DNA of 64,000 bases from a virus (lineage: Duplodnaviria > Heunggongvirae > Uroviricota > Caudoviricetes). A program made the translations under genes and the position numbers. The stretch is taken from the IMG/VR virus record IMGVR_UViG_2609459792_000007, one strand, 5' to 3'. The notes under the pieces are model-generated. The model did no database searches. It was not told the origin of the DNA and saw only the letters and a program-made list of their open reading frames with translations. Shown here piece by piece: positions 37,425 through 40,545 of this stretch; position 1 is the first letter of the stretch; each line of letters starts with the position of its first letter.

Positions 37425-38498
37425 ATGGCAAAAGGAAAATCCGCACTGGCACTTGCTCTGAAAAAGAAAATCGGTAGCAACGACGAAATTCAGAAAGTAA
37501 CTCATTGGATTGACACAGGCTTTCCTCCGTTAAACAAAGCTATTTCCGGTCGTTACGATGGCGGTTTCCCATGTGGTCGTATCGTAGAAGTATTCGGGCC
37601 GCCAAGCGCGGGGAAAACCTTTTTGGCAACAGCAGCAATGATCTCCGCTCAGAAACAAGATGGTCTGGCGGTATTCCTCGATCATGAGAACAGTTTTGAC
37701 GTTGGCCTGGCGGTAGCCAATGGCTTGAATGCAGATGAGGATGACGGTCAGTGGGTATACAAGCAGCCAGATACCTTCGAAGACTCTGTAGAGTTGATCG
37801 GCACAATACTTAAATTGGTACGTGATGAAGAGCTTATCCCTGAATCAGCACCTATCTGTATCGTGGCTGACTCACTTGCGTCTATGGTTCCGAACTCCAA
37901 AGCCGAGAAGTTCGAAAAGATGGCTGAAGGCACTGCTAAAGACAAAGATCAGCTAAACATGAACGACAATACGGCGCTTGCTCGTGCGACGAGCGCAAAC
38001 TTCCCCACTCTGGCTTTGTGGGCACGCAAATATAACGCCTGCATTATTTTCTTGAATCAGGTTCGCACAAAAATCGGTGTAATGTTTGGCGACCCTACGA
38101 CGTCGCCAGGCGGCGATTCACCGAAGTTTTACGCTTCTGTGCGCATCCGTCTCGGTGCATCGGTGATGAAGGATGGTAAAGAGAAGATCGGTCAGGACGT
38201 AGGCGCAGAGTGCATCAAAAACAAAGTTGCACCACCGTATGGCAAGTGCACCTGGAAATTCTACTTCGATCCTACTCGTGGCCTCGACGTTATCGAATCG
38301 CTCGTCGAGTACATGCTGGAAGAAGGATACCTGCCAAAGAACGCCAGCGGTCGAGTAGAAATTGGTGACAAGAAATACACCAAATCACAGATCGTCGAGA
38401 TGTATCGGGAGAAGCCACTAGCTGAAATCATTGCGGCTTTACAGGCAATCGACGACCGGAGATCAAAAGACAATCCCACCGAGTCAGTAGAAGAGTAA
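37425..38498 (+). CDS. RecA-like recombinase
   Basis: 357 aa; Walker A GPPSAGKTF; IVADSLASMVP and FLNQVRTKIGVMFGDPTTSPGG..KFYASVRIRL parallel bacterial RecA blocks as recalled. Confidence 0.8.
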   Translation: MAKGKSALALALKKKIGSNDEIQKVTHWIDTGFPPLNKAISGRYDGGFPCGRIVEVFGPPSAGKTFLATAAMISAQKQDGLAVFLDHENSFDVGLAVANGLNADEDDGQWVYKQPDTFEDSVELIGTILKLVRDEELIPESAPICIVADSLASMVPNSKAEKFEKMAEGTAKDKDQLNMNDNTALARATSANFPTLALWARKYNACIIFLNQVRTKIGVMFGDPTTSPGGDSPKFYASVRIRLGASVMKDGKEKIGQDVGAECIKNKVAPPYGKCTWKFYFDPTRGLDVIESLVEYMLEEGYLPKNASGRVEIGDKKYTKSQIVEMYREKPLAEIIAALQAIDDRRSKDNPTESVEE

Positions 38499-38513
38499 AC
38501 ACAAGGCGTCCAC

Positions 38514-38539
38514 AGGACGCCTTTTTTATCTCTTGAAAA
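38514..38539 (+). terminator. rho-independent terminator
   Basis: AGGCGTCC-ACAG-GGACGCCT followed by TTTTTT. Confidence 0.8.
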
Positions 38540-38590
38540 TATATAAGTACTTACTTATCATTTTCACATAACAACCACATAGGAAAACAC

Positions 38591-38791
38591 ATGATCAAAA
38601 TCTATCTATTGGCAGTAGCCACAGGCCTTTCAGTGGCTCTCATCTACGGATTACTGGTTCCGTCGCTGATTTCTGCAAAGAGTGATTTGGCCGTCATGCT
38701 TGGAGTTATTGTTGGTTTTGGCGCTCCAGTAATCGGTCTTATTGGTGGTCGTAAGTTTATTAACTCATTAATCAAAGCAAAGGGGAAATAA
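38591..38791 (+). CDS. small integral membrane protein
   Basis: 66 aa with two hydrophobic helices; immediately upstream of the SPFH lipoprotein gene. Confidence 0.5.
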   Translation: MIKIYLLAVATGLSVALIYGLLVPSLISAKSDLAVMLGVIVGFGAPVIGLIGGRKFINSLIKAKGK

Positions 38792-38794
38792 GTA

Positions 38795-39625
38795 ATGAAG
38801 AAAGGTTTACTTGCAGTTGCTCTGGCGGCTATTTGCACAATGGGTCTTACTGGCTGTGATCGCGTAGAGCCTGGATACGTTGGCATCAAAGTAAACAAAT
38901 TAGGTGAAGACAAAGGGATTGGTGAAGTGGTTGGCGTTGGTCGCCAATGGACAGGTCTTAACACCGAACTTTACGTATTCCCGACCTTCAAACAAATGAA
39001 GACCTACGACGAGCCGTTCACATTCCAGATGAGTGACGGTACTGCTATTGGTCACAAAATTGGCGTTGCGTATCTGGTTAATCGTGACAAGGTAACGACG
39101 GTGTTCCAGACCTATCGCAAAGGCGTAGACGATATCACCGAATCAGATCTGCGTCAGAAAATTGCCGACTCTCTAAACCGTTTGGCCAGCCGTATGACCA
39201 CTGACTCATTTATCGACGGTGGTAAGGCACAATTGTTGGACAACGCACTGAAAGATATTCAGAAAGAGATGTCTCCGGTTGGTATTGAGGTACTGAGCCT
39301 GTCATGGGTTGGAAAGCCTGATTACCCAAAAACCGTCATTGAATCTATCAACGCCAAAGTAACGGCTAACCAGCGTACTCTGCAACGTCAGCAGGAAGTC
39401 GAACAGCGTAAAGCTGAGGCGAATATGCTGCGTGAACAGGCTAATGGTGAAGCTGATGCTATCCGTGCTCGTGCGCAAGCAGAAGCAGACGCCATTCGTC
39501 TGCGCGGTGAAGCTCTGCGTCAAAACCCGAACGTTATGGAACTGGAAGCCATCAATAAATGGAATGGCCAGTTACCGCAGTACATGACTCAAGGGGCTAA
39601 CACTCCTTTCATTACAGTGAAATAA
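38795..39625 (+). CDS. SPFH/band-7 domain lipoprotein
   Basis: 276 aa; signal peptide with lipobox L-T-G-C; central band-7-like region and C-terminal Ala/Glu/Arg-rich coiled coil. Confidence 0.6.
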   Translation: MKKGLLAVALAAICTMGLTGCDRVEPGYVGIKVNKLGEDKGIGEVVGVGRQWTGLNTELYVFPTFKQMKTYDEPFTFQMSDGTAIGHKIGVAYLVNRDKVTTVFQTYRKGVDDITESDLRQKIADSLNRLASRMTTDSFIDGGKAQLLDNALKDIQKEMSPVGIEVLSLSWVGKPDYPKTVIESINAKVTANQRTLQRQQEVEQRKAEANMLREQANGEADAIRARAQAEADAIRLRGEALRQNPNVMELEAINKWNGQLPQYMTQGANTPFITVK

Positions 39626-39643: not shown

Positions 39644-39669
39644 GGCGTCCAGTTGGACGCCGTTTTATT
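39644..39669 (+). terminator. rho-independent terminator
   Basis: GGCGTCC-AGTT-GGACGCC followed by GTTTTATT. Confidence 0.8.
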
Positions 39670-39720: not shown

Positions 39721-40545
39721 ATGCCCAACCACATTACAAACGAAATCCGAGTCATAGGTGGTACAAATAAACAACGCTTAGATTTCATACGTGCCATAAC
39801 TAACAAAAAAGGTCTAATTGACTTTAATACCATTTGCAGACGTCCGAAAAGTATAGAAATGGAAGAAAACAATCATATCAGGCGCATGGCCTCTGCAATG
39901 GCGGGCGAAACAGTTTACGACTACATGTTCGGTGAATTAAAGACTCCAGAACAGGTCGAATTAGCTATGCGTGAATCTGGAATGACACGCAAGGAAATTC
40001 GCAAAATCAAAGAGCAGGCTCTTATGCGGCTTGAGAATTATCGTCGCTATGGCTATTACTCATGGTTTGACTGGTCGCGAGCTAATTGGGGAACAAAATG
40101 GAATGCCTACAACATCGAAATGCCCGTAAAACGTATCCCTACACGTATTAAGTACGGCCATAATTTCCGCCATACACACATTCGAGCATATGCAAAACGA
40201 ATCTATAAAAAACGTCTTGCAAGACATGCCGCAACTGGTGGTGAGTTGGTGATTCGCTTTGAAACAGCCTGGTCTATGCCAAAACCAATTTATCAAGCGA
40301 TGGCTAGAAAGTTCCCGCACCTTGAGTTTGTAATACGTTATGCAGACGAAGACTTCGGCAATAACTGCGGATTCATTTTACTTCGCAACGGCAAATGGGA
40401 ATATGACTACATTGCACCGGCGAATAACGAACAATCGTCAGAAGAAAAAATCAAATGGCGCAAGTTCGCCTTTGAGTTATGTTGTCCTGGTATCACTCCA
40501 CAAGAATACGGTCTAAATGAAGAATACGAATACGCCGGATATTAA
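39721..40545 (+). CDS. hypothetical protein, possibly DUF1281/Api92-like
   Basis: 274 aa; N-terminal HITNEIRV and SRANWGTKWNAY resemble a motif pair I associate with DUF1281-type plasmid/phage proteins; recollection only. Confidence 0.4.
   Translation: MPNHITNEIRVIGGTNKQRLDFIRAITNKKGLIDFNTICRRPKSIEMEENNHIRRMASAMAGETVYDYMFGELKTPEQVELAMRESGMTRKEIRKIKEQALMRLENYRRYGYYSWFDWSRANWGTKWNAYNIEMPVKRIPTRIKYGHNFRHTHIRAYAKRIYKKRLARHAATGGELVIRFETAWSMPKPIYQAMARKFPHLEFVIRYADEDFGNNCGFILLRNGKWEYDYIAPANNEQSSEEKIKWRKFAFELCCPGITPQEYGLNEEYEYAGY

Follow-up and report, generated by a model that had tools for sequence, protein, structure and literature searches.

What does a tailed phage do with an SPFH-type membrane protein of its own, and what does the tiny membrane protein encoded beside it contribute? 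The question is raised by two adjacent genes in a 64,000-nucleotide stretch of DNA (here denoted the window) from the IMG/VR virus record IMGVR_UViG_2609459792_000007 (Caudoviricetes). An earlier note, made from the letters alone, had read the genes as a lipoprotein with a band-7 (SPFH) domain and a small membrane protein, forming their own unit on a phage-plasmid. Both open reading frames (ORFs) are present as proposed and encode 276 and 66 amino acids, respectively. The comparison across phages presented here indicates that the small protein is a dedicated, conserved partner of the SPFH lipoprotein, and this is our main addition to the earlier reading. The stretch around the locus is 97.9-99.7% identical to ~110-kilobase (kb) non-mobilizable plasmids of E. 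coli, E. albertii and Shigella and to 'Escherichia phage CMS-2020a', 92% identical to the phage-plasmid Cyrano and 78% identical to Salmonella phage SSU5. Because of its identity to Cyrano, SSU5 and the related plasmids, we assign the window to an SSU5-family phage-plasmid of E. coli, in agreement with the element type proposed before.

Profile searches with the larger protein gave a Pfam match to Band_7 (PF01145) at 106.2 bits, far above the cut-off of 23.6 (E 2.6e-30), over residues 23-209 and profile positions 2-176 of 176, so that the band-7 assignment holds. The protein also matches the PHROGs profile phrog_200 'lipoprotein' (E 3e-108) and is already labelled 'SPFH domain-containing protein' in RefSeq. 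Its N-terminus, MKKGLLAVALAAICTMGLTG-C21-D22, is a classical lipoprotein signal with a basic MKK start. All of 12 diverse phage homologues have the lipobox Cys, and among 86 sequences its conservation is at least 90%; signal peptide, lipobox and conserved Cys21 together bear out the lipoprotein claim, with lipidation predicted. In E. coli, Asp at position +2 keeps lipoproteins in the inner membrane by avoidance of the Lol pathway. Asp occupies this position in all five enterobacterial-phage homologues above 68% identity and is conserved in the homologues of SSU5, P88, phiP27, KpCHEMY26, a Burkholderia phage and phiM6. The window protein carries it as Asp22 and is thus predicted to stay in the inner membrane.

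An AlphaFold2 model built on the 86-sequence alignment (predicted local distance difference test score, pLDDT, 83.7) shows an SPFH alpha/beta domain and one unbroken helix spanning residues 179-243, after which come a short helix and a tail of low confidence. The long C-terminal coiled coil of the earlier note therefore appears as a single helix of ~65 residues. Comparison of the model with solved structures ranked HflK/HflC best, followed by prohibitin, erlin, stomatin, flotillin, QmcA (rank 36) and major vault protein, with the FtsH-HflKC complex 7wi3 among the top matches. All of these form cages. For HflK/C, prohibitin, erlin, stomatin and flotillin, E values ranged from 1e-14 to 1e-8 over ~260-300 aligned columns, with cage subunits aligned over their full length. 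As modelled, an SPFH domain followed by a ~65-residue helix is the architecture of the cage formers HflK/C, prohibitin, stomatin and QmcA. By sequence, too, HflK and HflC come out best, both in solved structures and in curated models. With scores of 30.2 bits against a cut-off of 134.4 for HflC (TIGR01932) and 18.7 against 159.4 for HflK (TIGR01933), the protein is an orthologue of neither. It is not a flotillin either (Pfam PF15975 Flot, 19.9 bits against 27; FloT NF058507, 16 against 700).

The 66-amino acid protein consists of a short N-terminus, a first transmembrane segment (TM1), a loop P24-S-L-I-S28-A-K-S-D, a second transmembrane segment (TM2) and a Lys/Arg-rich C-terminal tail. Its two hydrophobic segments agree with the two-helix membrane protein described before; the predicted topology is an inner-membrane hairpin with both termini in the cytoplasm, the loop in the periplasm and the tail cytoplasmic. 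In PHROGs it matches phrog_1130 'membrane protein' (E 3.5e-25), in the category 'moron, auxiliary metabolic gene and host takeover', and RefSeq likewise labels it 'membrane protein'. Neither Pfam (at E <= 0.1) nor NCBIfam yielded a family for it. The NfeD-like partner for which the earlier note had suggested a search was dropped after this profile search, as the two transmembrane helices fill most of the 66 residues and leave no room for an oligonucleotide/oligosaccharide-binding (OB) fold. The most conserved part of the protein is the core IYGLLVPSLISAKSDLA, which is invariant in all SSU5-type variants except for S28T in some close ones. Outside this core the helices and the tail vary, down to 58% identity, so that the constrained surface is most probably the loop, which would share the periplasm with the SPFH domain. 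In an alignment of 11 phages P24 is invariant and S28 and G38 are nearly so. Distant phages share the motif P-x-[LM]-[LIV]-S, in full TM1-[VL]P-x-[LM]-[LIV]-S-x-x-[DS]-TM2.

Direct searches with so short a protein reached little: tblastn against phages returned only six SSU5-type records, and a word-indexed protein search only close relatives. More distant partners were found by reading the ORFs upstream of SPFH homologues and by a local hidden Markov model (HMM). A small protein bearing the motif lies upstream of the SPFH gene in the P2-like P88, the lambdoid phiP27, the N4-like KpCHEMY26, Vibrio phage CKB-S1, the T7-like Desulfovibrio phage ProddE, a Burkholderia phage, Sinorhizobium phage phiM6 and Pseudomonas phage TL; in the rV5-like 4MG it is one gene removed. 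We ran the HMM on all ORFs of 246 loci around SPFH homologues, 218 of which have a full-length SPFH gene and upstream DNA. It matched in 157 of the 218, selecting one ORF per locus: the partner was adjacent, upstream and on the same strand in 148 loci, upstream within less than 1 kb in 8 and downstream in 1. Some of the HMM seeds had been selected visually (Pseudomonas TL gp10 and the Burkholderia ORF among them), which makes the matches at seed loci non-independent; 80 IMG/VR loci and most of the further loci fetched are independent of the HMM. Grouped by similarity, 21 SPFH clusters are at least 35% identical to the window protein, and the partner accompanies 19 of them; SPFH lipoproteins below 30% identity lack it. 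Paired genes overlap or are nearly contiguous. The window pair shows the features that define the module, namely the loop motif P24...S28, the same orientation and a gap of 3 nucleotides, and the pairing claimed from this one locus proves to be conserved among its relatives.

A different small protein accompanies a more distant SPFH subfamily (N-terminus ...C-[ST]-Q-IDTGNVGVES...; IMG/VR loci L214, L212, L245 and L208). Here another two-helix protein of 55-64 amino acids is encoded 1-12 nucleotides upstream; this ~63-residue protein lacks the P-x-L-I-S motif. Small hairpin partners may thus be a general feature of phage SPFH lipoproteins.

A natural gene fusion ties the two proteins more closely. 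P0021 (347 amino acids) joins a hairpin protein with the loop LLPNMISSDS in frame to a signal peptide, lipobox and SPFH domain; two independent contigs carry the fused gene. Such a fusion speaks for a functional link between the two proteins and would also fix their topology. In P0021 the signal peptide becomes a third transmembrane segment, which should place the C-terminus of the hairpin in the cytoplasm (with its N-terminus there too) and leave the loop and the SPFH domain in the periplasm. From Asp at +2 together with this fusion we infer retention in the inner membrane.

Substitution rates indicate that both genes are under purifying selection and are real genes rather than chance ORFs, since the ratio of nonsynonymous to synonymous substitution rates (dN/dS) is 0.03-0.09 for the SPFH gene (against SSU5, P88 and phiP27) and 0.18 for the small gene (against Cyrano). 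The ORF on the opposite strand at 38644-38964 (106 amino acids) was treated as spurious. Between the window and Cyrano the SPFH proteins are 100% identical (dS 0.04), whereas the small proteins are 74% identical (dS 0.80). A mosaic boundary therefore runs between the two genes, the small gene (window 38591-38791, Cyrano L247 6193-6393) having been replaced by recombination between lineages beside an unchanged SPFH gene. SPFH proteins of E. coli and Vibrio phages are still 44% identical, with 33 invariant columns in the 86 sequences. Such strong conservation would fit a conserved host target or a constraint from self-assembly.

A tblastn search detected SPFH homologues in 413 INPHARED phage records, and one protein query returned 3026 clusters (90% identity) at E <= 1e-10. 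The carriers include Schitoviridae, Vequintavirinae, Ounavirinae, Bruynoghevirus, Autographiviridae, phiCbK-like, Lak and crAss-like phages, as well as temperate Stx-converting, P2-like and SSU5-like phages. Schitoviridae, Vequintavirinae, Ounavirinae, Bruynoghevirus, Autographiviridae and the phiCbK-like phages are lytic groups. In annotated examples the pair lies among genes for DNA polymerase, exonuclease, dUTPase, ligase, RecA-like recombinase and P2 gene A, and in lambdoid prophages it lies in the operon that runs from the repressor region toward xis and int; in none of these annotated examples was it seen in a lysis cassette. This gene neighbourhood suggests expression alongside replication genes in phages of lytic groups, with early or middle timing. 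PaP3 and LUZ24 have no SPFH gene (PMC8540360), and the temporal transcriptome of PaP3 (PMC4707531) was dropped as a source on timing for this reason.

Public records often mislabel homologues of the family as 'serine protease', 'SPFH serine protease', 'transposase' or 'transposase fusion protein'. These labels have no sequence support and probably arose from the COG name 'membrane protease subunit' and annotation transfer. The assignment given here corrects them.

Is the pair a unit of its own in the window? The stop codon of the small gene (TAA, 38789-38791) is followed by a 3-nucleotide gap and the ATG of the SPFH gene at 38795, with the Shine-Dalgarno sequence of the SPFH gene inside the upstream gene. 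In P88, phiP27 and KpCHEMY26 the homologous genes overlap by ATGA. The proposed translational coupling goes further than this arrangement, which is compatible with it and would allow roughly equimolar synthesis of the two proteins. The hairpin upstream of the pair is the likely terminator of the RecA-like recombinase gene (37425-38498) and the likely left boundary of the cassette; a second hairpin downstream marks the right boundary. Both share the stem GGCGTCC..GGACGCC, at 38505-38521 and 39644-39661, of which there is no third copy in the window and of which none would be expected by chance. The two also have similar T-rich tails; they look like a duplicated terminator, perhaps the trace of a cassette insertion. 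Between the upstream hairpin and the small gene is a sigma-70-type promoter-like site with a perfect palindrome in its spacer. Its core is identical in SSU5 and has two spacer differences in Cyrano, with both hexamers intact. Cyrano and SSU5 keep this site and both hairpins, and the site is better conserved than the flanking DNA.

Published RNA sequencing of Cyrano, in which CYRAN_56 and CYRAN_57 are this pair, allowed us to follow its transcription (S1 table of PMC9928086; values are log2(fpkm+5), fpkm being fragments per kilobase per million mapped reads). In stationary phase in lysogeny broth (LB), CYRAN_56 was at 2.32 and 2.32 and CYRAN_57 at 4.3 and 3.02. In THP-1 macrophages 6 h after infection, CYRAN_56 reached 7.61 and 7.70 and CYRAN_57 7.25 and 7.42, while the flanking genes in the same samples stayed low (recA-like gene, 4.06 and 4.05; CYRAN_58, 4.2 and 3.94) (PMC9928086). 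The pair rises ~10-40-fold inside macrophages with its neighbours at background. This pattern shows that the Cyrano pair is transcribed as a unit of its own that stays off in ordinary culture but can be induced. Together with the promoter-like site and hairpins kept in Cyrano and SSU5, it bears out the self-contained unit that had been proposed from terminators. The authors of that study did not count the pair among their morons, and no Cyrano virions were produced in macrophages (PMC9928086).

Other Cyrano genes were induced in macrophages as well (CYRAN_60-62, CYRAN_46, CYRAN_5, CYRAN_12 and CYRAN_13; PMC9928086), among them the major capsid gene, a tail gene and a Cra-like operon that sits just downstream of the region of the pair. 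This scattered induction suggests a partial, promoter-specific derepression.

The window holds further copies of a ~22-base pair palindromic motif, GATAAGTAAGTACTTACTTATC, one of which coincides with the promoter-like site of the pair. A motif scan found 24 copies in the window at <=7 mismatches, against a mean of 2.8 and a maximum of 8 in shuffled sequences. The copies lie mostly 30-70 nucleotides upstream of gene starts on the + strand and have -35-like and -10-like hexamers at their two ends. They probably represent the phage-plasmid's own class of early/middle promoters or operators, and since the site of the pair belongs to this recurrent motif, the cassette would use that class too. The features of the locus are collected in Table 1.

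Table 1. Positions of the pair, its protein segments and its candidate control sites in the window (numbering from the first letter of the window; amino acid numbering within each protein).
Feature	Position	Strand	Basis or detail
Small membrane-protein gene	38591-38791	+	ORF, 66 amino acids
Most conserved core of small protein, IYGLLVPSLISAKSDLA	38642-38692 (amino acids 18-34)	+	End of TM1, loop, start of TM2
Shine-Dalgarno sequence AAGGGG of SPFH gene	38780-38785	+	Within 3' end of small gene; 9 nucleotides upstream of ATG
SPFH lipoprotein gene	38795-39625	+	ORF, 276 amino acids
Signal peptide	Amino acids 1-20	+	Part of 38795-39625
Lipobox LTGC, Cys21	38855-38857	+	Matches pattern [LVI][ASTVI][GAS]C
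Asp22 (position +2)	Adjacent to Cys21	+	Translation
SPFH domain	38861-39421 (amino acids 23-209)	+	Pfam
Long helix	39329-39523 (amino acids 179-243)	+	AlphaFold2 model
Conserved C-terminal motif W256-x-G258-x-x-P261 ... PF	C-terminus of SPFH protein	+	Homologue alignment
Upstream hairpin, probable left boundary	38503-38523	+	AAGGCGTCC-ACA-GGACGCCTT, then TTTTTAT; 9-base pair stem with 6 GC pairs
Sigma-70-type promoter-like site	38533-38561	+	TTGAAA, 17 nucleotides, TATCAT; 10/12 matches
GATAAGTAAGTACTTACTTATC copy at promoter-like site	38538-38559		Motif scan
Perfect palindrome TAAGTACTTA in promoter-like spacer	38544-38553	+	Sequence
Downstream hairpin, right boundary	39644-39661	+	GGCGTCC-AGTT-GGACGCC, then GTTTTATT
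Other intergenic GATAAGTAAGTACTTACTTATC sites (~20), examples	5483, 10867, 15955, 19389, 20267, 22912		Motif scan
Further GATAAGTAAGTACTTACTTATC examples	29436, 35018, 51865, 56578, 61418, 63633		Motif scan

How might the two proteins work together? The reading to which we would give an even chance is that the pair forms a two-subunit scaffold of the inner membrane, a periplasm-facing SPFH cage like that of HflK/C with a dedicated hairpin subunit. After export, the large protein would carry a lipid on Cys21 and, through Asp at +2, stay in the inner membrane, with its SPFH domain on the periplasmic face and the conserved loop of the small protein on the same side. The lipoprotein would then oligomerise into a ring or cage on this face, with the hairpin protein as the integral-membrane subunit, in a role like that of NfeD/YbbJ for QmcA, and cage and hairpin together could fence off a patch of membrane. 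The module would act on a conserved component or property of the host inner membrane; foremost among the candidates are FtsH, the protease that HflK/C has as its client, and the integrity or energisation of the membrane under envelope stress.

Several observations weigh against this scaffold. The cage is deduced from the resemblance of the modelled monomer to cage formers, and the C-terminal 25 residues, the part that closes the cap in known cages, are of low confidence in the model. The link to FtsH is one of family resemblance. Outside the enterics, homologues have Ser, Asn, Glu or Gly at +2, where the E. coli retention rule is unusable. No partner was detectable at the loci of Ea21-4-like Erwinia phages and in the L108 cluster. 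In some homologues a hydrophobic N-terminal segment replaces the lipobox Cys; the partner is kept even beside these proteins and is therefore not simply a substitute membrane anchor. Finally, PM0222 of Pasteurella multocida, a possibly related protein, was found in outer-membrane vesicles (PMC9872710).

Known systems offer two close parallels to such a scaffold. The HflK/HflC complex of E. coli (PDB 7vhq, 7wi3 and 9cz2) shares the SPFH domain with a long helix, the best sequence and fold matches, a periplasmic-face SPFH domain (predicted for the phage protein) and a link to phage biology, the hfl locus controlling lambda lysogeny. It differs in that HflK and HflC are anchored by an uncleaved N-terminal transmembrane helix, whereas the phage protein has a lipobox signal peptide for a lipid anchor. 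HflK and HflC also form a heterodimer, whereas the phage has one SPFH gene, with the 66-residue hairpin protein and a DUF1281_C protein as its neighbours in the window. The phage system, moreover, has the separate hairpin partner, is phage-carried and scores far below the equivalog cut-offs. The second parallel is the SPFH-NfeD operons (QmcA-YbbJ, PDB 8z5g; YqiK-YqiJ; the archaeal stomatin-STOPP), which likewise encode an SPFH scaffold and a small membrane partner in two genes; QmcA is among the fold matches, and by analogy the helices of the phage partner are probably embedded in or under the ring. In contrast to these operons, the phage partner has no NfeD/OB-fold domain or Pfam match and its gene lies upstream. 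QmcA faces the cytoplasm, whereas the phage complex is predicted to face the periplasm.

The most concrete form of the scaffold, a specific sub-case of it that we nevertheless consider unlikely, is an HflK/C mimic aimed at FtsH. It would capture or shield the protease from the periplasmic side and so stabilise phage proteins or host regulators, such as CII-type regulators in temperate phages and membrane proteins in lytic ones. HflK and HflC being the best sequence matches and, with 7wi3, among the top folds speaks for this, as does the predicted periplasmic orientation, which is reportedly that of HflK/C (Chiba and colleagues, in 2006). A target conserved as universally as FtsH would also be in keeping with how strongly the SPFH sequence is conserved. 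Lambdoid prophages have the pair in a pL-like operon, and the pL operon of lambda carries cIII, an FtsH inhibitor. Against the mimic stand scores far under the equivalog cut-offs (30 against 134 bits for HflC, 19 against 159 for HflK), a single SPFH gene in place of a K/C pair, and the frequency of the module in lytic phage groups, which take no lysogeny decision. The idea of FtsH as target is routinely raised in genome papers (PMC8540360, PMC10269572, PMC4936722).

Superinfection exclusion or anti-phage defence, which the earlier note had considered, would have the pair block incoming DNA at the inner membrane, like T4 Imm/Sp, HK97 gp15 or P1 Sim; we find this distinctly improbable. A small two-helix inner-membrane protein with an anchored periplasmic protein does resemble exclusion factors in make-up, the PHROGs category of the small protein would suit such a role, and so would the self-contained cassette and the allelic replacement of the small gene beside an unchanged SPFH gene seen against Cyrano (dS 0.80 versus 0.04). 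The likeness to T4 Imm/Sp, T5 Llp and P1 Sim is, however, one of composition only, as small inner-membrane or lipid-anchored periplasmic early proteins; none of these has an SPFH domain, and there is no sequence relationship. Neither protein of the pair matched a defence model in PADLOC-DB v2 at E <= 0.1, and the pair is off in LB-grown lysogens of Cyrano, a near-identical element. The SPFH protein is highly conserved across unrelated virions and hosts, which is atypical of exclusion proteins that track fast-evolving targets, and the small protein varies in its helices and tail, not in its exposed loop. The presence of the module in lytic groups, beside replication genes and with a strongly conserved SPFH protein, argues both against lineage-specific exclusion and against a purely lysogenic role.

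A benefit to the lysogen in an animal, by tolerance of envelope stress in macrophages or by TLR2 signalling through the lipoprotein, would fit the ~10-40-fold rise of the Cyrano pair in macrophages at 6 h without virions (PMC9928086), and we rate it as quite doubtful. The nearest precedent is PM0222 of P. multocida C48-1, a prophage-encoded SPFH/HflK/C-like protein of 25-35 kDa that the lysogen expresses; a deletion strain is less virulent and grows more slowly, and immune signalling via TLR2 has been reported for it (PMC9872710). By its description PM0222 may be related to the phage protein; it differs in being reported from outer-membrane vesicles. E. coli HflKC is reported to have a role in tolerance of aminoglycosides and oxidative stress (PMC10434171). 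Against a lysogen benefit, the module is also found in N4-like, rV5-like, FelixO1-like and phiCbK-like phages, lytic groups that are never lysogenic, and other Cyrano genes (capsid, tail) rise in macrophages too, so that the induction of the pair may reflect partial derepression. Lysis timing, with the 66-residue protein as a class II holin or antiholin and the lipoprotein as a periplasmic regulator or spanin-like protein, is hardly credible: size, topology and charged tail of the small protein fit class II holins, and spanins too combine a lipoprotein with a protein of the inner membrane, but the holin, endolysin, Rz and Rz1 genes of Cyrano lie ~30 kb from the pair, other phages have the pair among replication genes, neither protein matched a holin or spanin family in Pfam or PHROGs, the hairpin lacks a periplasmic domain and an outer-membrane o-spanin would not be expected to carry Asp at +2.

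A wider form of the membrane scaffold, which we put forward tentatively, is that the pair is a hitherto unrecognised, ancient and widespread viral membrane-cage module, with which unrelated lytic and temperate phages capture a conserved host membrane machine, for example FtsH, or keep the membrane energised. If true, the module would be a general mechanism of host takeover and not a lineage-specific moron. Already known are the genes, the PHROG families and their annotations, as well as SPFH proteins with small membrane partners of the NfeD kind; the window proteins are clear members of phrog_200 and phrog_1130, which both carry general labels only. The apparent novelty lies in an SPFH protein that is lipid-anchored, faces the periplasm and has a hairpin partner of a non-NfeD kind, the two being kept together as one module in many phage families. 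In the open-access literature we found no systematic pairing of phrog_200 with phrog_1130 and no functional study, only speculative remarks on phage SPFH genes. The SPFH cages of HflK/C, prohibitin, stomatin and flotillin have been resolved only recently and their bacterial roles are still debated. The presence of a phage SPFH protein in hundreds of genomes, under strong purifying selection and with a recurring tiny partner, suggests that this way of organising membranes is important in infection. With two genes in ~1 kb, a fusion variant found in nature and macrophages as a known inducing condition, the system would offer a tractable handle on SPFH-cage function and on phage manipulation of the inner membrane.

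The genes on either side of the cassette differ among relatives. The RecA/UvsX-like recombinase gene upstream is 1074 nucleotides long in the window versus 2340 in Cyrano (L247 3760-6099), and the match to phrog_9666 (779 positions) is limited to a C-terminal part. In one related plasmid a LAGLIDADG homing endonuclease is annotated under the matched recombinase stretch; some relatives seem to carry an intein or homing-endonuclease insertion in this gene that is absent from the window. The next gene downstream (39721-40545, 274 amino acids) encodes a protein with a DUF1281_C/Api92-like ferredoxin-like domain (E 6.5e-16; phrog_12644). Its position is taken by another gene in SSU5 and Cyrano, so that the right flank of the cassette is variable.

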